DNA of 64,000 bases from the NCBI GenBank assembly GCA_022813865.1, contig JALDZX010000005.1:186001-250000 (forward strand), in the 5' to 3' direction. The position numbers were made by a program, and so were the translations under genes. Numbering within the stretch: the stretch's first letter is position 1; each line of letters starts with the position of its first letter. This document shows, in pieces, positions 15,546-61,808 of the stretch. The notes below the pieces were generated by a model that searched no databases, had not been told where the DNA came from, and worked only from the letters and a program-made list of their open reading frames with translations. This DNA is from Xylographa opegraphella. Its lineage: Eukaryota.

Positions 15546-17119
15546 TCAGAGTCCGACGGCCAGACACTCGTCGAGCAGGGCGTTGAGCTGCATCCGATCG
15601 GCCGCGCTGCCGCCCTCCCAGCCCCAGGATTCGTCCTCGTCATCCATCTCATCGTCCAGTGCTCCATTCTTCCCATGTATGCCATTAACGCCATTAATGC
15701 CATTCCCGTTGATATGCGCGAGCCGCTCCCGCCTCTGTTCCTCCTCCATTTTCTCGGCCTCTTCGTCATCTCGCTTCCGCTTCTGGTACTCTTCCCATTG
15801 TCCCTCAGGATTTCCATTCATGACCTTCCCTACTATGACTGGAAACTGCCCCAACCCGCAATCGCCGAGCTCCAGCGCAAACCGTAGGTCGTGCATGCCG
15901 AGCGGTTTACGTGCTGCCGCCTCTTTTACTTCCACGGGCAGAAGACCACTGCCCGGGGCACGGACAAGTTCGCCTCGACTGGCGGCTGCTTCTTCCTTCC
16001 GAAGCTGCTTCTTGAATTTATGGGTCAAAATGCTCTTTACACTGCCACCGGGCATATTACTACGAGTACGTGTGTAGACGGTGGAAAGGACTTCCTTGAT
16101 GAAGTGTTCCGTTGCTGTTGCCATAAAGCTTGCACAAAGTGGGGCGCAGCCGTTGGGGATGGATTCCTCGTAGCAGATGGGCACCATGCGACCGTGTATA
16201 GTTTCAGCATCAGGAAATTCACCCGTTTCTGAAGCGAGAGGTAGGGAGTAGCGTTTCCGGATCTCGAGATCCCAGTCTAGACACAAGTCAGTCAAGAGCG
16301 GTCTGAAGTGATTGGGGCAGCGGGCAGATATACTTGTCTTGTTGAAACCGCTAGCACCTGTGGGAGCAGTGTCTGAGCTGCGAAACTGTTTGGCAAGCTG
16401 ATACTCAGCCATGGCGGCTATGGTGGGATCAGTCTGATCGCCCTATTGGAGGTGGTTGTGGTTAGTGAAAGAGTTTGAGTCACTGGATATTTTGCTTGAT
16501 TGGCAGTGTTGACACTTCAACGCGCCTTATCAGCACCTACTTCGGTAATTTCCTTAAGCCTCCTTCGATCTCTCGCGGGCAGCTGCATGACCTCAGCCTT
16601 GAGTCTCTGCTCTGCGGCATCACCAGATATCGGCTTCGGTAATGTCGTAGGCTTGTCATTCGCAGAAACCCAAGGCGCGACGCCCGCGTCTGGGGGATCT
16701 CGAGGGACATTGGCAAAGATTGCGGCTACTAGCTGATTGTGAAGGTGCTCAGTCGTGGGATCGGTCGTCAAGAAGTAGTCCGTTCGCAAAGATAGCTCGC
16801 TCTGGTTAAGCTGGCCTAGGAGAAACGTGACATATTAGCAACGAACTATATTTCCAGAAATCTCCTAGCATCGTAGTTTCATACCAAGTATGAATAGACT
16901 GATAGCTTCTTTGTACTCTGACCAATGGTCGCCGATTGCTGCCTTCAGGTTCGTGTACAGAGGCTCGAGGTCTATGCGCTGGACGGTGTTCGCAGTTTTC
17001 GCCGCCTTCTGCGTGGCGAGCATATTGATGCCATTGAGTTTTGAGGTCAAAGATGAAGGCGCGAGGGGCTGAACGAAGGAGTCTGATCGGGTTAAGGCCG
17101 CCGGGTCGATATCTGGCAT
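15546..17119 (-). CDS. HFI1: SAGA complex subunit Ada1/Hfi1 (SAGA-Tad1 domain), 4 exons
   Basis: [78 protein letters not shown]. Introns near 16817-16885, 16445-16526 and 16277-16333. Confidence 0.88.
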
Positions 17120-21522: not shown

Positions 21523-23451
21523 TTATTTCATATTTCTCCTCTTCATTTCTGCAAACACCAAGTCCTTTAGCAATTGCACAGCCGCCCAAATCCCTTGTAC
21601 AACATCCCTTTCTGTGCGTTTCTCTTCGAAGTCGTGAACATCGCCAATGAGACCCTCCGGATCATCAGCATACTGGCTATGGACTGAGCGACCCTCGAAA
21701 TCTTGTTTTATATTCGAACCGAAGTCCAGCAGTGTACCAAACCCTTTATTTCTGAGGACATCCTCGTGCCACTTCCTTATCTCGCTGATCATCCTACATT
21801 TCAGTCCCTGTAGAGAATTGGAACCTAGACTCTCAATTTCGTCGACACTAAGTATCGCATCTGGGACCTGTTCTGGGTCATCAAAGCTCTGCACAGGAGG
21901 GTCGAAAGTCAGGGATGCTTGTAGCCCAAGAGGATACAAGTAGAATTGTAGAGCGTGAAACTGGATTCGCACATGGGCTGGAGGGTGAAATGCAGGCTGG
22001 CGAGGAAGACGGATATAGGCAGGAAAGGGCTCGAGGAGTGGTTCGAAGTGCATAGTGACGGTAGGATACGGGATTCTTGGGGTAATTGTTTGAGAGTGTT
22101 CTGAAAGTGACGTCCAGGCAGAGTCGTATCGCGCGAGGTCGTTCTTAGCTTGGCTGACAACATCAGCCGTAAGTCGAGGCATAGCTGTTTGGCCGTCACG
22201 GCCACCAAAATAATGATGCCTAGAGTAGCGATGGTAATAGCTACCAGGAAACACTCCGGGCTCATTGTCGCTTTTCGAAGCTTCATGCAGTAGATCTTCC
22301 TCTCTTGGCTGTTCTGTCCGTTTTCCATTAGGACCCCATGGATATTGTGTATCTGGTCGCCAGGTATCGTCACTATCGTTCGCGTCAATTATTTCACCCA
22401 ATGAGTACCAGCTCTGGCTGTGTTCTGGGTCGTGCAAATGGTATTTCTGCATATTTCGAAACTCCCGTTTCTCGATTTCGAGAGCTCTCTTCGCGCGATG
22501 AAGGATTCTTAGACAGTGTCGAATACGGCAACGTTGTCTACGTAAGGACGCAGCAATAATACTGAATACGTGCCATTGCTGCTTGAAGAAATCCCCATGT
22601 TGACTGTCCGTGGCCTTTGGTGTCGGAAAAGTCGCATGGAAATTCAAGGGACCATGATCAATAGGCGACTCATCTGTTGCACTGACATATATTGATTCAG
22701 GTAAATCTATATCGGGATTGTTGTTGTCTCTGTAATCTGTCAAGTCCGGGACTTTTGCACGATTTGGTAGGTGCTGGAAGAACTGGCTGCTGGAATAATC
22801 ATAGAGATTCGGGCCCAGGGTGGCTGAGGCATAATTCTCAGACACAGGAAGATCAGTGCACCAGGAATGATGGTACTCTGATGTATAATTATCTTCCAGC
22901 GAAGGAAAACCTCTGTCTCGAAGTCCTCTATACCTCAGACCTCGTACTGGCAAGCTTGCTGGAGTGCACGGTATAGCATAATCTCCTGGGTATACGGTAC
23001 CAGGCAGCATCGTCTCATTGTTCCGGACAATCTGACTCTGATCGGCATGTGCTTCGAAGTCTCCCATCCAATCGTTTCGCTCATCGTCATGAATGCCGCC
23101 TTGGAAAGATGGACATGGTTCCCATCTTGACAGCAGGTAATTGAGTCGTTCATTTCTCGATCCGCTACCAAACTTGCGACTTCCGCTGTGTCCATAGTGC
23201 TGGTAATCATATGCATCGTAGTGGTCGTCAGTGACATTCATTGTAAAGTCGTCAGCAACGTTCCAGAAATGCATTCCGGACCACTTGTATCTGTTGTCAA
23301 CTTCTCCACTTGATACGTAGGGCGGTCCGGCCCATCTTCGATTGTACATCGGACGGTATGGTACTCCATGGTGATGGTTAAAATCTTTCGCGCAAAACAA
23401 GGGCTGCATGATATTGGTCAATTCCTCGACTGGGTATGAGTAGAAGGTCAT
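21523..23451 (-). CDS. Hypothetical protein, 642 aa, with a degenerate 'IPWP...RWHPD'-type C-terminal domain
   Basis: Long single-exon ORF; start codon uncertain. C-terminus reads YDSAWTSL..IPYPT..EIRKWHEDVL..VQGIWAAV. Confidence 0.65.
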   Translation of the reverse strand: MTFYSYPVEELTNIMQPLFCAKDFNHHHGVPYRPMYNRRWAGPPYVSSGEVDNRYKWSGMHFWNVADDFTMNVTDDHYDAYDYQHYGHSGSRKFGSGSRNERLNYLLSRWEPCPSFQGGIHDDERNDWMGDFEAHADQSQIVRNNETMLPGTVYPGDYAIPCTPASLPVRGLRYRGLRDRGFPSLEDNYTSEYHHSWCTDLPVSENYASATLGPNLYDYSSSQFFQHLPNRAKVPDLTDYRDNNNPDIDLPESIYVSATDESPIDHGPLNFHATFPTPKATDSQHGDFFKQQWHVFSIIAASLRRQRCRIRHCLRILHRAKRALEIEKREFRNMQKYHLHDPEHSQSWYSLGEIIDANDSDDTWRPDTQYPWGPNGKRTEQPREEDLLHEASKSDNEPGVFPGSYYHRYSRHHYFGGRDGQTAMPRLTADVVSQAKNDLARYDSAWTSLSEHSQTITPRIPYPTVTMHFEPLLEPFPAYIRLPRQPAFHPPAHVRIQFHALQFYLYPLGLQASLTFDPPVQSFDDPEQVPDAILSVDEIESLGSNSLQGLKCRMISEIRKWHEDVLRNKGFGTLLDFGSNIKQDFEGRSVHSQYADDPEGLIGDVHDFEEKRTERDVVQGIWAAVQLLKDLVFAEMKRRNMK

Positions 23452-26036: not shown

Positions 26037-27036
26037 CTTCTGAAACGTTCGGAGACCTAGCTGTGCTCAGGGTACGTGATGCTTCAGAGCGCGCAATTCG
26101 TTACCTCTCCTCCGTACGAAGTACATTCGTCGCATTGGCTCTGAGATTACTTTTGGGAAACGCGAACAGCGATGGTGCACGGACCACACACGCTAATGCG
26201 GCTGTAGACTAGACCACTTCGAGCCGTTCTACCACCATCAGCCGATCAGGACCAATTCTCCACGAATCAATACGTATAGCATTCCTCTTGTCTTTCATAC
26301 GGAGAACTTCGCCATATTACCCTCAGAGATAGCGACTCCATTCGCTATCAGTTTTATAGCGAGGAAGCTATAGTGAGTCGTACTATGATTCTACGCCAAT
26401 CACGCTCAGCCTGGGGTCATAGGTTCTCCGCCAGAAGAAACGATGGCTGCCTCAAAAGCCTCCATTGCCTGATCTTACCGGTACTTTATTATGGAGATTG
26501 CTCAAACCTGCTGCTTATGATGCGAGATCTATATGACATGATCTCACATTTATACCGATTGTCAATACTCGATACAATACCCCAGGCTGGTGCGGAGTAC
26601 CTTCGGGGCGAACACCCTATCATCACCCGATCCCGGTTGGAGGTCTGCTTCAGATAGAAAAGGGAGCGTGAGTGCTTGAGAGGGTTTTCCAAATCGCTTG
26701 TTCTGGCCAGCGTACATGAATACATCAAGATTGTTTTATCCGCCAGCTCCATACGGATTACTCTCGGCTGGTTAGCAGCCGCGGCTTAGGGCTAGTGCCC
26801 GAGTCTTTCTTCTACTTACCAGCTATCTTATGGTAGCGAGAGAGAGAGGTAGGGTACGCCTACGTTAGCAAATAAGTCTAGCCAGCGCATCTCGCGGTCG
26901 CTCCAGAAAGATGGATCATCGCGACAGACCTAGGATCCAGACCCGGACCTTGATCCTACAAATGTACTCACCCCGCATAACTCATCGTTCGCGCGTCTGC
27001 TGTCCTGTGACAACCGCGATTTGAACCGCAACCAGA

Positions 27037-28421
27037 ATGGACTCATTAACCCAGCTGGCCGAGGAAATCCTAGCCACCGCTAAGCGCCTCGACGCATACA
27101 CCACCGCAAAGAATCTACCCCCTGTCTCCTTCGATGAAGACAGCCTGAGAGAGCTCCCCGCCGACGTAGACGCCGCTCGCAAATCCCTCATCGATTCGAC
27201 CCAGACATTACGGCGACTTGCCCTCGGCCCTGTAGGCACCAACCTCGACATCGCATACAGCGTGAGCACCACGCCGCACACCCACCCGTACCCAACCCAA
27301 TTGACAACCGCCAGGCAACGAACGTGCTCTCCCTCCGCATTATCTACGAGTACCGCATCCCGCACATTGTTCCCCTTTCCGGCTCGATTACCTACGCCGC
27401 CATCAGCCAAGCATGCGGCCTGCCCGAGGACCTCGTTGTCCGCTTCCTGCGACACGCCATGGCGAACCACATCTTCGCGGAGGCCGCGCCCGGGCACGTC
27501 TGCCACACGGCCTTCTCGCGGCAGTACGTCACGGACGCAGCGTTCTGCGACACGATGGGCATGCTGACGTGCGAGGTCGACCCTTGTTATGGGAAGGTCG
27601 TCGACGTGCTCGCTTCGTACCCCGACTCCGGCGCGCCAAATGAGACGGCGTACGGTCTCGCCCACGGGACCTCCCTCCCGATGTATGCCTTCCTCACCGA
27701 GCACCCGGAGCGGGCGCGCCGCTTCGGCTCTGCCATGCGCTGGTTCACTAAGGACGAGGTCTGGGACCTGAAGCACCTCGTCTCCAGCTATGACTGGGCG
27801 TCGTTGGACCGGCCCGGCGCGGTGCTCGTGGACGTCGGCGGCGGCGAGGGAGGCGTCGCACAGGTCCTGGCCGCTGCGACGCAGCAGCTGAAATTCGTGG
27901 TGCAGGACCTGCCCGACACGGCGAAAAGAGCGCGGGAGCTGCTCCCCGCGGCCTTTCACGACCGGATCGAGTTCGCGGCGCATGATTTCTACACCGACCA
28001 GCCTGTCGCCGCCGATGCGTATCTCTTCCGCTGGATCATGCACAATTACAGCGATCCGGCCTGCGTGCAGATCCTGCGGGCGTTGATCCCCGCGCTGAGG
28101 GACGGGGCGCGCGTACTGGTGTACGAGATCGTGATGCCGGACACGCCGATCACGAGTTACACGGAGAAGATTCAGGCGTGAGTGCCCCTCCCCCATCCCT
28201 GGGCTTCTGCTGTGCTCACCGTGGAAGTCGGGACGCTGATGCCATGCGTGCGCTGCAGGAACGTCGATCTCATCATGCTGGCCATGTTCAACTCCTGTGA
28301 GCGGACAAAGGACGCTTGGCGCAAGCTGTTCGCCGCCGCGGACGAGCGATTTGTCTTCGCGACCATCATCAGCGTGCCGGGGAGCGAGCTGAGCGTGATT
28401 GAGTTCATCTGGAAACCATGA
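27037..28421 (+). CDS. SAM-dependent O-methyltransferase (Methyltransf_2), secondary-metabolite type, 3 exons
   Basis: Introns 27262-27314 and 28178-28258. Motifs LVDVGGGEG, FVVQDL, HDFYTDQPV, ADAYLFRWIMHNYSD, CERTKDAW. Confidence 0.92.
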
Positions 28422-29034
28422 TCGCGGTCGTCGCGGAGGCGGGATGTTGAGCTGCTGCAACGCAGCGGTGGTGTTTCCCCCTTGTTACCGTTCTACATGC
28501 TCGTGTAATATGCGTTGTCGACTGATGCCGAAGTACGGCACTCACAAAGCCTGAGAGATTGATTTTTGAGAATGGCTCGGCGATTGTTCCGGGATGTGAA
28601 ATCTGATGATTGTATTTTTCCTGTAAATATATGAGACTCACTGCCTAGCCGTCCACCCAGGCTTATAAAGTCCTCCTCCAGACGAGCTAGACACCGTTCC
28701 TGCATGCCACTTTTCAAACAGCCGGTACAACGGGTCCCTACCTCCCATGCGGGCCTGGTTCTTAGAGGCACACCTCGCGGCGCGAGATGATCACCTCGTA
28801 CCTGCTTCCGCATCCTCTCATACCGCGCCCGGCTTCTCGAAGCCAGCGTCGTCAAGGATCTCCGCGGGCTCTGCCACTCGCAATACCACTCGTGAGACAC
28901 GGTGTTTGAGCGTCCCAGTACGGCTATGTTTGAGACTAGCCCCAGAGCCTCGTGTGGCAATATCGACACCTCGACCCCGTCCAAGCGGCGTGTGTGCATT
29001 TATGCTTACTGCTTACCCTCCGTGCCCCGATTCG

Positions 29035-29877: not shown

Positions 29878-32800
29878 CCTTACCGCGCGTAACAATTCAG
29901 TGTCGGATTGAATTGGTATTGAAACGAGGTATATCAAACCCAATCGGATGAAATTCCACATGAGTATGGGCAGGAGTCAATTGTGGTGAATAAGGTATCG
30001 CTCCGCAAGCAACTTGGAAGGTCACACACCCCGCATCTCAGCCTTGTATCGTCCGCTTGAGCGAGGAAGCGAGATAAGACAGAACGAGTACGCGGATTCG
30101 AAGACTTATTGAAAGCGTACGGCTCATCCCCGCCCGTGATATAACCTGTACCAAACGATACTTCAGGATGACGCATCCCACCTGAGAATACCTGTCACCT
30201 CTAGACGCCAGTCCAGGTGCCTGTCAGCAATGATTTCTTCGATAAACTTCTCAGCCTCGACTGAGCAGCAGGGATCAATACTCTTACTGCCAAACCCTAC
30301 TGCTTCAAGAAAGGGTATTTGGTTAGCCAGTCAACTCTAAGAGTTCCACTCAAAAGGCCACTCTAAAGAACATGATTACCCACTCAGTTTTCGTCAATCT
30401 GCCGGTGGTCTGGCGCGAATTTGCTGAAGGGAACGAATGGAAGGTATAATCGACCGAGGCGAGGAAACTTGCCTGTGAGGTCTGCGAAATGAAACCTATA
30501 TAGACAGGTAGCAATATAAGAAAGCTTCCGAATAGTGAAAGGAACAAGCACTTTTGGATGCGGTACTATCACTCCCATGAGATCCTGCAAACTGGATGGA
30601 GGCGTTGGCCACCTCTGCCACATGTTCAGGCAGCTGTGAGCTTCGAGAAACGACCTTCGTCCAAGAGTAAGGACAGCCATACCCGCATATTGAAGGGGTA
30701 TATTTATGCCAAGGCGAATAGGTTGGTAGAGTTTTCGTGGTGGCCAATTCGGTATGCTTGGTAGCAGGTGGGTGTCTCAAAATGAGAACGTGATATGTCA
30801 TGAGAAAATTTCGAGTTCTTCCGACTTAAAAGAGCAACAAGTTAGATTACCGTGATAACCGGGCGGGACAACGATAATAACTGTCATAAGATCGATGACA
30901 TCAGGAAGAGTTCGCCAGAAAATGATAATATCACGCGGTAGATTGAGAAGGACGGTACTTTGCTTCTTTAATGCCATCAGATATTCCTAGCACGGAACTT
31001 TCAACACTAGACACATAACTCTCTTATCGCACAAAGTCAAGGAAGGGCTTTATTGAAACAAAAAACGAGCCTGGAAAAAGAGCATGTAGAGAATTGCAGA
31101 CCTCCAGCTTCTGCAAAACACAGGATACATAATCGATAACAGCATCACTGCAAGCTGTCACCTGGAAGTCTGGTTTGTGACATGATCTTACAGCAGAAGG
31201 AGCTGGGCTATCAAGAGATGCAAAGATGATACACAGAGATTGGGGGGTCGGTGGGGTGTCTAAGCAGGACAAGCAGTTTCATGAACGGCCATGCACTTGG
31301 TCATTAACAAAATCTGACTCATTTGTTCTATGTTGCTTCAAATGTGCTTGTTGATATTTCGTTTCTTGATCTTCTTTCATCGTCTACTTAGCAGAAAAGA
31401 CAACAGCATCTGATAAGGTTCCGCCGGACGTTTAATTGCCGCGTTAGCTGTCTTTAGATTCACCTCAGGCTGTGCTGAGATGGGATCTGGTGAAGACCTG
31501 AACGGGGCTCGAAATTGGATGAATCATTGACCGAAGACTATGAGGCTCTGGGATCTTGGCTCCCGTTGCTTTTCTTTGCTCTTTGTCTTCAAGATCCAAA
31601 TCCCATCAATGACCAGGGGAAAAGGTTTGTCGCTGCTTCTGTAGCGAATCCTTCCCCGGCTTGGCGGGCTCACGTGACGAAGCATTCTAGCCTATTCTAG
31701 TACTAATTAATACTACTCCATGTTCTTGCTCAATACATTTTACCTCTTCGACGTCACATATTCCCCGGCGCTTTGACGTTGACCGCAAATATGTATCGTG
31801 TCTTGTGTCGACTGCAGTTGCAGTGTTCTTATGTACCTTCTCTCGTATTGATGCTGCTTGGGCACTGTTGCCAAGATGGAATGTATTGATGAAGGCCGCT
31901 TAGCATGGCATTATTCGTCTGACCTGAGCATGTGAGCATCCAAGCATTGAGCTGGGGAACTAGAGACAACTTTAGCCCGCTTTTCTGGCTTGTTTTCATG
32001 GGCCTGAGCTCCCGAATCTTCTGTTGAGCCCCTGATTGTGCTACACGAGTCTTAAAAAGGTCGCCGTGCCGGGGTCTTGTATGCAAGGCCTCAAAGAACT
32101 CACGACCATCTGGCCTCTGTCAGGATAAAATAACGATCAAAAAGCGCAAACTTCTGCGGAATTGGGCGAATCCCGATGGATAGTTGAAACGGGACGGTTT
32201 ATCTGCGGATCTACTGTGCAAGCTTACGTATGATCAACCTACAAAGACATGAAACATCACATCTAGCAGAAGTGATATGGCACAAACAGATTCCAGCCCA
32301 TATTCTACAAGTGTCAAAGATCGTCATATCGATCGTATGTTGTCAATAAGACCTCTCGATCTCGTTTTTCTCTGCTGCCTACGAACCGGAAAGCAGCACT
32401 TCCGGCAAATGATGAAACACTCATCGCATATGTATGGTGTGGCTGTAGCATATGGCACATATCATAGTGACGAAGATGTTACCAATGATCGGAGGAAAGT
32501 TTCCGAAAGCTGTTCTCGTTCTCGCTCGATCGCTTCGCATTGCAACTTAAGTGGACAGGTTCACTCGATGGCGATGATCTATTTCAGCCATCAATAATAA
32601 CTGATTGTGTCCTTCCTATTCTAGCTGTTCTCTTGGATCTCTTCTATGTGGGGTTCGCATGCAAAACGACTTTTCTGCAATGCAACCCCATTGCATTGCT
32701 TGGCATCAGCTCGACTCTGATCTCTATTGCTTGTTAATTCAATTCGCTTGCTTTGCGGAGTATTCATGCGCGCATTTCAGTGATGTATGATACTAATTTG

Positions 32801-32990: not shown

Positions 32991-32997
32991 TATAAAA
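32991..32997 (+). promoter_or_regulatory. TATA box of the small secreted peptide gene
   Basis: TATAAAA about 109 nt upstream of the ATG at 33100. Confidence 0.5.
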
Positions 32998-33099
32998 CAT
33001 GCTTCATTAGGAGGCATCTTCTCATCCCTAGAAACGAATTCGCCGATTCTCCTCAGTCTCTCACTTGTCACCGTTCGACACGCTTCAAAGAGATTCATA

Positions 33100-33341
33100 A
33101 TGCTCCGCATCAAATTCCTCTCCACGCTATTACTTTGCGTTGCCTTGGCATCAGCAATGCCCTTTGAAGGTACGTGCTCTCTAGCCCAATTACATCCGTA
33201 CTACTTCTGATCCTGTATACCACAGCAACCGTCCTTGAAACTAGAGAAGACCTCATTTCGCGCGGTACCTGCAGCGGTCCCGGGAACCGTCGTTACTGCG
33301 AACCTGGCATCTGCGTTTGCGCCACTTGCGAGTGCCCCTGA
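33100..33341 (+). CDS. Small secreted cysteine-rich prepro-peptide (61 aa; 2 exons)
   Basis: Exon 33100-33169, intron 33170-33225 (gtacgt..ctgat..cacag), exon 33226-33341. Product: MLRIKFLSTLLLCVALASA-MPFEATVLETREDLISR-GTCSGPGNRRYCEPGICVCATCECP*. Confidence 0.8.
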
Positions 33342-34529
33342 AGAGGTCAATGGGTATATCAAGCGCTCTGGACTCGTCGAACATCGGTCGCTAAAGCGTG
33401 TATTGTGCTGAGCAAGAGGTCGGAGCCGAACACTTTGCTGCGAACGTCACAGGATAAAACGAAGTTTGTAAGCGTATCAAGCAGGCATTGTTTCAAGTCT
33501 AGCCGAGTGACCAGTGCGCTATTATATACTGCCTTGAGTATTTGGATGTCATAGCATATTATCGAGTCATTATTTTCACTCTCTGGACACACCCTCTTCG
33601 GAGTTTTTGCTGTGACCTTAAGACAAATTGATGCGAATTGAAATAGGCCCAGTAGGGCATTGCCGCCCGGTGCTGAGCTCAAATTCGATTTCTAGCAGAT
33701 GTCTAGAGAGTGAGGATTTCGGAAAATCTTCGACGAGTGCTGGTTCAGTTATATTTTGATCAGTATCTTTACAGATCGAGCAATATACATGTGTACGAAA
33801 TCCTATCCCACCATCCTCGTTTCGACCAGTCCACCAAATCAAGCACATTTCCACTGGCAGAAACCCCAGATACCAATACTCAACCACCTTTCCCTTCCCC
33901 ACAGTAAGGTCGACCCCACAAACTGCTGTTCCCCATCCACTTAATGTTGCTAGCCACATTGCCATCATAACCTCCAGAACTCTTGTTGCTCAAAAGCTTA
34001 TACGGCAAATACACTCTCTCGTAAACATCTTACAGAACTTGTGCTCTGCATTGACAAGCCATATAGGGTATTCACACCGTAGACCTTGAGCGCTGGTAGC
34101 TAAACGATCACTCATCCGAACAGCATCCCGCGTGGCAGGCACTGTTTCATCAGGGGCAGCTGTGCGCTGGTAGCAGAATATGGGAGTGAGTTCATGCAGC
34201 TGTGATCAATTTAGAATAGAAGCGGTTGACGTAAGTACAATGTCTGGGAGGCATCACGTCCTAGAAATGGTTGCAGGCGCCATAATTTTGAGATTTAATG
34301 AGCAGGAAGGCTTTAACATGACCTTACCCCACAGCCCGGAGATACCGCTGTTATCAGGGGCCCCTTAGGGACTATCTTAGTGCCTCACACGTCCATTAGG
34401 ATAACTCTAAATCAGCCTTATCTTAGCTGCGACCGCGTTGCTTCAATAACGAGAATGTCGCGTAGTTTCCAACTTGTGGTAGTCTTCAATCTTTGCAACG
34501 TAATTCTGGTTCCTCAACTTCCTGTACTA

Positions 34530-36109: not shown

Positions 36110-37513
36110 TCAAAACAAGTCCCTTATCTTGCCGGCGAAATCCCTTTTGGCCTGCGCATCGACATCCTCCTGCTTGCCCTCCACCTCAATTGCGTTCCGA
36201 ATCTCCCACTCAAACTCCTTGAGCGCCCGCAGCTCCGACCCGATGAACAAGCCCCCGATCAAACCATCAATTACGCCAGCGCTCAGGTTGATGGTGCTGA
36301 TGAGGGCGACGATGAAGGAGACGTAGGTGTGGGGCGACCACCAGATGCCGATAAGGCAGCCGATCGAGATGAAGACGGCAATCACCAAATGCGAGAGCAT
36401 GATACGCCGCTGCCGGAGCTGGCGCGCAGTATATGTGTGGATAAGGGGAAGGATTGAGAGAAGGAGAGTACGGTCTGGAGCTCGCGGCGGAGAGTCTACT
36501 TTTTCGCCATCGTCCGATCCGACCCGCACAATGGTTGCCTCGACGGAGAAATGGTCGCTCAGCGAGCAGCCCAGCGTCGGATGCCGGGCCGTCATACCCA
36601 CTTTGGAGGCCTGCACCCGCCACTCACTCCCTGGACCCGAGCCAGGGCTGAAGAAGATGTAGTCGAGCCTCTTCGCGTTCCGGTCTTCCGCCTCGTCCTC
36701 GGCGTCGATGCGCTCGCCTTTCCGAAGCCGCTTCTGGTCTTCCTTGCTCCACCGCCACGTGTTCAGCGCACTGTCACACGTTGCTCCGTTCTCCCGCACA
36801 CTCTCCCGCGCGGTCGGCACCGGCCTGCCCCGTGCCTTCTCGGCCTCATCCGCCGCCGCCCCCACCGAGGACTCGGGATACAGCACCCGCCACACGTCCC
36901 TCACGGGCGCGAACCCCTCGATCAGCCGGTGCGCCAGCGACAGCGGCACCATGTTGAAGTCGCCCATGCCGACCACCAAATGCCCGCGCTCCGCGGCTCC
37001 GCGCAGCAGCTTGGCGATCTCCCACGCCTGCGCCGTGCGGTGGCACAGATAGGAGTCGCGCGGCTCCTTCTCGTACGGCGCGTGCAGGTGCGTGCAGAAT
37101 ACCTCGAGCACGTCTTTCACGCCCGGGCCGTAGCGGATGCTCGCGCACGCGACCCCCTTGCCGACGAACCAGTCGCCGCGGTAGAAGGCCGTCGGCCGCC
37201 CGTTGAGGGGGTAGCGGTACATGGTGCTCGCGGTGATGGGGTACGCGGACAGGATGACGAGCCCGGAGCCGAAGGCGCCGCTGTGGTAGAACTTCGAGTG
37301 TGGGAGGAGGGGGCGCGTGGCGGCGCGGATGGACAGGTAGTCGGCGTACGCCCAGCATTCTTGCAGCGCGACGATGTCGGGTGCGGGCGAAGCGCGGGCG
37401 ATCTCGTGCCCGATGCGGGAGAGGCGCGCCGAGCGCGAGGTGGAGATGTATTTGAGGCCCCAGCAGTTGAGGGTGAGGAGGTGGAGGGTTTTGGGTGGGG
37501 TGGGGTGGGACAT
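36110..37513 (-). CDS. ISC1: Inositol phosphosphingolipid phospholipase C (neutral sphingomyelinase, EEP family)
   Basis: LTLNCWGLKY, DIVALQE, GDWFVGKGVA, THLHAPY, GDFN, RLDYIF, SDHF and two C-terminal TM helices. Confidence 0.93.
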   Translation of the reverse strand: MSHPTPPKTLHLLTLNCWGLKYISTSRSARLSRIGHEIARASPAPDIVALQECWAYADYLSIRAATRPLLPHSKFYHSGAFGSGLVILSAYPITASTMYRYPLNGRPTAFYRGDWFVGKGVACASIRYGPGVKDVLEVFCTHLHAPYEKEPRDSYLCHRTAQAWEIAKLLRGAAERGHLVVGMGDFNMVPLSLAHRLIEGFAPVRDVWRVLYPESSVGAAADEAEKARGRPVPTARESVRENGATCDSALNTWRWSKEDQKRLRKGERIDAEDEAEDRNAKRLDYIFFSPGSGPGSEWRVQASKVGMTARHPTLGCSLSDHFSVEATIVRVGSDDGEKVDSPPRAPDRTLLLSILPLIHTYTARQLRQRRIMLSHLVIAVFISIGCLIGIWWSPHTYVSFIVALISTINLSAGVIDGLIGGLFIGSELRALKEFEWEIRNAIEVEGKQEDVDAQAKRDFAGKIRDLF

Positions 37514-60933: not shown

Positions 60934-61808
60934 TGGCCTGGGTCGGGCGGGACGGCGTTTGCAGGATATGACTGGCGGGCGGGCGTGCTTTGCGGGTGCG
61001 GGTGCGTGTGCTCATCAGGGTCAGGGTGTTTCGAGCGCTCCCTGGTTACCGTACCTACCTTACCTTACCTACTCTTCAGCGTCTTGCGAAGTACTTTTTA
61101 ATCAGTTATATTGAAACTAATCACTAGGCGCAGGTAATGGCAGCAGGTAACAGTGCATTGCTTAATCACTAAGAAGGTGAAGAGTTCTTCTGGANACGGG
61201 GCTCCAGAAGACTCCTCTAGTTCTGCACTAAGCTAGGCCTAATCCGCTATAGTAAAGGACCAACAACACAGACTGCTAACGCCCTGATTTTCAACAAGTT
61301 TCGTCAATCGCACCGCGTCGAGGGGAGGACGAACGTTCTCCTCGTGAGGTAGATCCCGATCCCGGATCCAATCCCCCGTCACGGCGCAGCGTCCCGCTCG
61401 TTGGGCTTCGGCTTGGCGCTTGGAGGGTTCGGAGCGTGGGAATGAGGGGTGGGATGGGCATGGGTGATGGAGATGAATAAATCTGCTTTAGGTCATGGAG
61501 GTTGGAATTTCAAGGATATATCCACGCCCCCCTCCCCCTTTTTGGGGGTTTTTTTTTCCCGGTGGACCATGTATGATCGACGATGCGTAGAAAGGCGCTT
61601 ACAAGACCTCACGCATTCGCAAACACACACGAGAACCACACAGGCAGTGATGAACGCACATCGACAATCGCAAACATCAATACATTTTCCGTCCCTCGCG
61701 GCACGGGTCCAAGATACAGAGAGAGAGACACACACAACGCTCCGCCAGCCCGCTCCCCCACGTGGCCCGATCCGAGCGCAACTGCTTCGCGCCCGCGACA
61801 CCCCAGGA

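Follow-up and report, generated by a model that had tools for sequence, protein, structure and literature searches.

We identified a probable unannotated gene of a lecanoromycete close to Xylographa, with two exons and a putative 61-aa prepro-peptide as its product. That the locus is a real gene we consider fairly probable. The fuller reading, which we prefer with modest confidence, is that the prepro-peptide would give rise to a secreted, disulfide-rich effector candidate. The window, meaning the whole stretch of 64,000 nucleotides analysed here, contains this layout once, in a gene-poor region around position 33,100.

The coding sequence lies on the forward strand and runs from an ATG at 33100 to a TGA at 33339–33341, giving a CDS of 186 nt and a product of 61 aa. 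Upon re-reading of the sequence, the intron, ATG, and stop fell exactly at the coordinates proposed in the initial annotation. Its statement that the open reading frame (ORF) track misses the gene was also borne out, as the frames are split and a single ORF covering the gene is absent from the ORF lists. The features of the locus are as follows.

32991–32996 (+): TATAAA box, 109 nt upstream of the ATG
32997–33099 (+): pyrimidine-rich spacer and presumed 5' UTR (C+T 0.59 vs. 0.505 in the window)
33100–33169 (+): exon 1, 70 nt, encoding a 19-aa signal-like peptide (33100–33156) and the beginning of an acidic spacer
33170–33225 (+): intron, 56 nt: donor GTACGT, branch-like CTGAT at 33207–33211, 3' end CCACAG (acceptor CAG)
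33226–33263 (+): first part of exon 2, encoding the remainder of the acidic spacer ("pro-region") with S-R at its end
33264–33338 (+): Cys-rich tail in exon 2, 25 codons, with six Cys (all TGC) and an internal R-R
33339–33341 (+): stop codon TGA, end of translation

The ATG stands in the context TTCATAATGC, with an A at −3. Exon 1 translates as MLRIKFLSTLLLCVALASAMPFE, the split codon G|CA across the exon junction gives Ala, and exon 2, read from 33228, translates as TVLETREDLISRGTCSGPGNRRYCEPGICVCATCECP followed by the stop, which comes one codon past the final Cys of the tail. An upstream TATA box had been reported, and TATAAA was found at 32991; the transcription start site presumably lies between this box and the ATG. 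The surroundings were as gene-poor as had been described, with frames of at least 200 aa absent between 28484 and 34317.

The choice of splice sites was examined across all GT/AG pairs. A total of 23 combinations keep the frame open from the ATG at 33100, and the sole consensus donor is GTACGT at 33170. The first AG past the branch motif is at 33225, 15 nt from CTGAT, and the pairing of this donor with this AG yields exactly the Cys-rich frame. Introns of the adjacent WD40 gene (start at ~34455) measure 59 and 56 nt, have GTGAGG and GTAAGT donors and CTAAA and CTGAT motifs, and leave no internal stop upon removal; the distances from branch motif to acceptor are 14 and 9 nt. Since it falls in the same length class and carries the same kinds of motifs, the candidate intron is typical of this genome. 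No other gene model at the locus is as canonical. Similar 12-nt strings encode G-T-C-S at 33169–33180, if the 5' splice site is read through, and at 33264–33275, where the tail starts, probably by coincidence.

The locus could also be transcribed and give another product, either a 36-aa peptide from the unspliced frame, which stays open until it ends at 33210, or a 78-aa Ala/Pro/Val-rich secreted protein. The latter arises when donor 33170 is joined to the TAG acceptor at 33244, which keeps a frame open that has one Cys after the signal. Over exon 2, this alternative frame (33247–33411, +) has the higher overall codon log-odds, 0.149 vs. 0.033 for the Cys frame. However, the branch motif is followed first by the AG at 33225, at 15 nt, and only later by acceptor 33244, whose distance of 34 nt also exceeds the short ones in the WD40 gene. 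In addition, the alternative frame (33211–33411) had no Pfam match. We therefore regard both of these products as very unlikely and continue with the 61-aa precursor.

Translation of the spliced frame reproduced the described layout, in which a signal-like N-terminus of 19 aa is followed by an acidic stretch of 17 aa and a Cys-rich tail of 25 aa. Cysteines occupy precursor positions 13, 39, 48, 53, 55, 58, and 60. After the signal-like region, the spacing is C-x8-C-x4-C-x-C-x2-C-x-C, in agreement with the initial annotation, to which one correction is made here: a seventh Cys, at position 13, lies within the signal-like region itself. The other six fall within the last 23 residues of the 61-aa precursor, and Cys makes up 24% of the tail. 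The N-terminus passed a crude signal-peptide filter that was passed by only 6 of the 2193 ATGs in the window. This rule asked for a basic n-region, small residues at −3 and −1, and a hydrophobic core of 10 aa averaging at least 2.3 in hydropathy; in the candidate, A-S-A occupies −3 to −1 of the presumed cleavage site. A strong signal-like start was also seen at the ATG at 16974 (+), with a hydrophobic core score of 2.89, which may begin a gene for a secreted or membrane protein.

The proposed cleavage before the 25-aa tail, S-R|G, is monobasic and is not a dibasic Kex2 site, while a dibasic R-R occurs inside the proposed "mature" peptide; consequently, any mature peptide may have a different N-terminus. 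The exon 2 portion of the spacer has a pI of 4.68. The 25-aa tail contains one Tyr and is near neutral rather than cationic (pI 6.1, charge −0.3 at pH 7), which makes it a poor fit to a classical cationic antimicrobial peptide. An AlphaFold2 model, built from the single sequence with no alignment, was unusable (pLDDT 57.3, pTM 0.22).

Chance expectation was assessed for the parts of the layout and for the whole. Stop-free 25-codon regions with at least six Cys occur at seven separate places in the six frames, among 58,663 stop-free segments of this length, so Cys richness by itself is not unusual in the window. Within the same gene-poor stretch, a 38-aa ATG ORF at 32211–32327 (−) has six Cys within 25 residues and lacks a signal-like start; it is probably a chance frame. 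The full-model search called for a signal-like start, a product of 40–120 aa, at least six Cys after residue 19, and at most one intron, which had to fit a consensus defined as GTRNGT, CTRAY 8–40 nt before YAG, and a length of 45–100 nt. This full model was found once in the real window, at the 33100 locus, and was absent from the reversed window and from all of 300 order-3 Markov windows (0/300). In 40 further simulated windows with 87,735 ATGs, 80 ATGs were signal-like and 267 had the Cys model. The factorised expectation was ~0.006 full models per 64 kb, a value to be read in light of simulation criteria that were fixed after the candidate had been seen. The TATA box was a feature independent of the model search: TATAAA occurs only 22 times in the window on both strands and stands at −150 to −40 of just 41 of 2191 ATGs (1.9%). 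The whole layout is thus rare, though each feature alone is weak.

These numbers bear directly on the possibility that there is no gene and that intergenic DNA combines, by coincidence, a signal-like ORF with splice-like motifs and a Cys-rich frame. The features had been picked post hoc in the initial annotation, the seven Cys-rich regions and six signal-like ATGs occur in the window regardless, and at ~0.006 per window, a genome-wide scan of several hundred windows would be expected to return a few chance models before the TATA criterion is applied. Against coincidence stand the zero counts in the 300 simulated windows and in the reversed window, the additional TATAAA, the fact that a lone consensus donor and the first AG yield the Cys frame, and the stop directly after the Cys cluster.

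Codon usage was compared with that of gene segments and stop-free intergenic segments, and it cuts both ways on the question of coincidence. The overall codon log-odds of the candidate was 0.011 per codon, compared to a mean of 0.005 for stop-free intergenic DNA and 0.14 for gene segments. This value is below 93% of gene segments and is indistinguishable from the intergenic null, which favours the absence of a gene, although a low overall score is partly expected because the measure penalises Cys-rich composition. The synonymous-only score was 0.044, which is gene-like (gene mean 0.036, intergenic null mean −0.016), and 14% of null segments score as high. TGC is the codon used for all seven Cys. 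The GC content also rises in a gene-like manner, to 0.62 over exon 2 vs. ~0.45 in the flanks, with 0.464 across 30–34 kb as a whole. Taken together, codon usage is neutral to weakly supportive of a gene.

The surroundings were searched for features that might compete with the candidate. The locus lies between genes, and no competing Pfam, Rfam, repeat, or tandem-repeat feature was found there. Pfam gave nothing above cut-offs for 34 frames across 28.5–34.4 kb, and Rfam gave no match at gathering level across 28–35 kb, with one sub-threshold lncRNA match (E 0.35) at 32076–32142. Paralogues, repeats, and tandem repeats of the candidate were absent from the 64-kb window. Results of a bacterial promoter and terminator scan of the region were set aside as irrelevant, the host being a fungus. 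Elsewhere in the window, the open frames at 26982–28484 (−; 500 aa) and 21523–23451 (−; 642 aa) had no Pfam family at E ≤ 0.01. A GC content of 0.579 and minus-strand frames of 101–168 aa extending to ~29.7 kb suggest further upstream exons for the 26982–28484 gene. The single ambiguous base (N) of the window is at 61195.

A neighbouring gene for a phospholipase C-type enzyme, at 36110–37513 (−), places the host close to Xylographa: its protein shares 78–82% identity with those of five named Xylographa species. The genus is placed in the Lecanoromycetes, which are lichen-forming fungi, and genes in the window carry short spliceosomal introns. The same phospholipase C-type protein also has an entry of 100% identity in the protein collection. 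Unlike this neighbour, the candidate has no self-match there, which indicates that the gene was not called in the protein set of its own genome. The missing self-match counts towards an absence of a gene. Ab initio callers, however, seldom predict two-exon genes of 61 aa. For the named Xylographa genomes, gene calling was purely ab initio and used Augustus, snap, GeneMark-ES, and GlimmerHMM (PMC9098629), so that absence from protein sets is weak counter-evidence.

Relatives were sought in protein, structure, and prokaryotic genome collections. Pfam searches with the 25-, 37-, and 55-aa reads returned no families even when E values up to 10 were admitted, and the only hit among PDB sequences was the unrelated FabA (E 1.2). 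A word-indexed search of a 40-aa reference against proteins of 22–70 aa returned nothing. The ESM Atlas gave no usable match for the 37-aa query, and for the 25-aa query the best values, 0.79 and 0.78, were below the level that shuffled proteins reach one-third of the time. In bacterial and archaeal genomes, none of 600 pattern matches was confirmed.

An HMMER scan of 1.84 billion representative proteins gave one borderline match, at E 2.6e-4, to a partial hypothetical protein (P0003) of Smittium culicis, from a distant fungal phylum. This protein is built of repeat units of ~29 aa with K-R before each, has no cysteine, and has no Pfam family above cut-off. The alignment comprises 11 identities in 24 positions over a "spacer - basic site - G-T...G..N.RY" pattern, both aligned query Cys are replaced, and three repeated stretches account for the E-value of 2.6e-4. 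We rejected it as a relative, given that the Cys are not conserved, and attribute the similarity to chance or to convergence at a processing site. In its own right, the protein resembles a repeat precursor from which Kex2 would release small peptides. The gut-dwelling S. culicis also has two related hypothetical proteins (P0125 and P0126). Compared to such precursors, the candidate has a single unit and S-R in place of K-R, and repeated units with K-R or R-R separators were found neither in the gene nor in the window. With no usable family match from Pfam, PDB, the ESM Atlas, or the 1.84 billion representatives, the suggestion that the peptide belongs to no known family held up, and the sequence appears to be new, with no detectable relatives in the protein, structure, and prokaryotic collections searched. 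The same lack of any homologue is also what would be seen if the locus were intergenic DNA. Weighing this and the points above, we consider coincidence unlikely, yet deserving of serious attention, and continue to favour a real gene.

The candidate was then compared with known classes of small peptides. Small secreted Cys-rich peptides that are orphans form a common class in fungi, and some can be expected in any filamentous fungal genome. The small secreted Cys-rich proteins and candidate effectors of filamentous fungi share a signal, tiny size, high Cys content, the lack of a domain, and lineage specificity. The candidate has the corresponding features, namely a signal-like N-terminus (by the crude rule), a length of 61 aa, and six Cys outside the signal, in an operational class that is not a homology family and in which membership says nothing about function. 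It differs in being shorter than most annotated members, in being unannotated, and in being known from sequence alone. For Cladonia grayi, also a lichen fungus, coculture with the alga is reported to induce small secreted proteins, most of which are unknown and unique to that species (PMC6652019). The predicted peptide is thus ordinary in kind and resembles the lineage-specific small secreted peptides of fungi.

The closest layout is that of Avr9, an apoplastic effector that has a cystine-knot fold and a short intron. In Cladosporium fulvum, the Avr9 precursor is 63 aa long and yields a mature peptide of 28 aa that contains six Cys (PMC7488470). The candidate, with its 61-aa precursor and 25-aa six-Cys tail, is compared to it here by size and Cys number alone. 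Knottins (inhibitor cystine knots) have six Cys connected 1–4, 2–5, and 3–6, with loop lengths in a range typical of the family. A knottin check gave no toxin or knottin Pfam match, the Atlas value of 0.78 was to scorpion short-toxin clusters and below chance level, and the structural model was, as given above, of low confidence (pLDDT 57.3). The loops of 8, 4, 1, 2, and 1 residues are presumably atypical for a knottin, and the C-x-C-x2-C-x-C cluster would leave loops too short for a standard knot.

Defensins and related antifungals share with the candidate a signal, a pro-region, a Cys-rich mature peptide, and secretion. Plectasin-type (CS-alpha-beta defensin) and AFP/PAF-type peptides are ~40–58 aa long and cationic, whereas the tail of the candidate is 25 aa and near neutral with its pI of 6.1. 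The CxxxC...CxC framework of CS-alpha-beta defensins is absent, CxxxC is absent altogether, and Pfam and PDB gave no match to this group. The spacing is thus unlike that of a CS-alpha-beta defensin by both framework and profile, as the initial annotation had judged.

Resemblance to metallothioneins required separate consideration. Metallothioneins are cytosolic and typically have no aromatic residues, the smallest fungal ones are similar in size to the candidate, and an even number of Cys in the oxidising ER normally leads to disulfides. A metallothionein motif had been recognised in CxCxxCxC, and this string does correspond to the final part of CxCxxxCxCxxCxC, a motif conserved in plant metallothioneins (PMC6212650); the likeness is one of resemblance only. 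On this basis, a real gene could encode a tail with reduced Cys that acts as an extracellular, metallothionein-like Cu/Zn binder. Along with the shared motif, the 24% Cys of the tail agrees with such a role, and papers on CXCXXCXC, judged by title, mostly concern metallothionein. In contrast to metallothioneins, the candidate has a pro-region, only six Cys, a Tyr in its tail, and a signal-like N-terminus in place of the cytosolic, signal-free form. Metallothionein family profiles in Pfam gave no matches at E up to 10, the signal would route the chain via the oxidising ER, and there is only one short CxC/CxxC cluster. We hold a metal-binding product to be extremely unlikely. By its predicted features, the peptide is neither a defensin nor a metallothionein, and it is probably not a standard knottin.

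Under the reading that we prefer, that of a small secreted effector candidate, the 19-aa N-terminus would direct the chain into the ER and be cut after A-S-A. The six Cys of the tail, an even number in an oxidising compartment, would form three disulfides and give a compact, near-neutral peptide of ~2.6 kDa; the calculated mass of the reduced 25-aa form is 2577 Da, and three disulfides would lower it by 6 Da. A monobasic-specific or Kex2-like protease may take off the acidic 17-aa spacer, perhaps with a cut behind S-R, or processing might instead take place at the internal R-R. Release into the extracellular matrix would follow, and the product may be of a stable ligand or inhibitor type, a candidate effector that would act on the algal partner or on other microbes. 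We regard a cationic, membrane-active antimicrobial as less likely. What was observed is the anatomy of the sequence, and each step past translation is one we infer from it. A bolder reading, and a long shot, is that of a new fold or family, in which a near-neutral, 25-residue secreted peptide with a C-terminal CxCxxCxC would act extracellularly as a metal binder or as a three-disulfide scaffold for fungus–alga signalling. Lecanoromycete genomes might then harbour further members of such a family, overlooked because short spliced genes escape ab initio callers.

As a single orphan candidate read from DNA, the locus changes little by itself. If expressed, it would be an example of very short spliced secreted-peptide genes that escape ab initio annotation in the genomes of lichen fungi, in which candidate effectors of the fungus–alga symbiosis are poorly known. 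A compact three-disulfide peptide of 2.6 kDa without relatives would also be inexpensive to synthesise and test.
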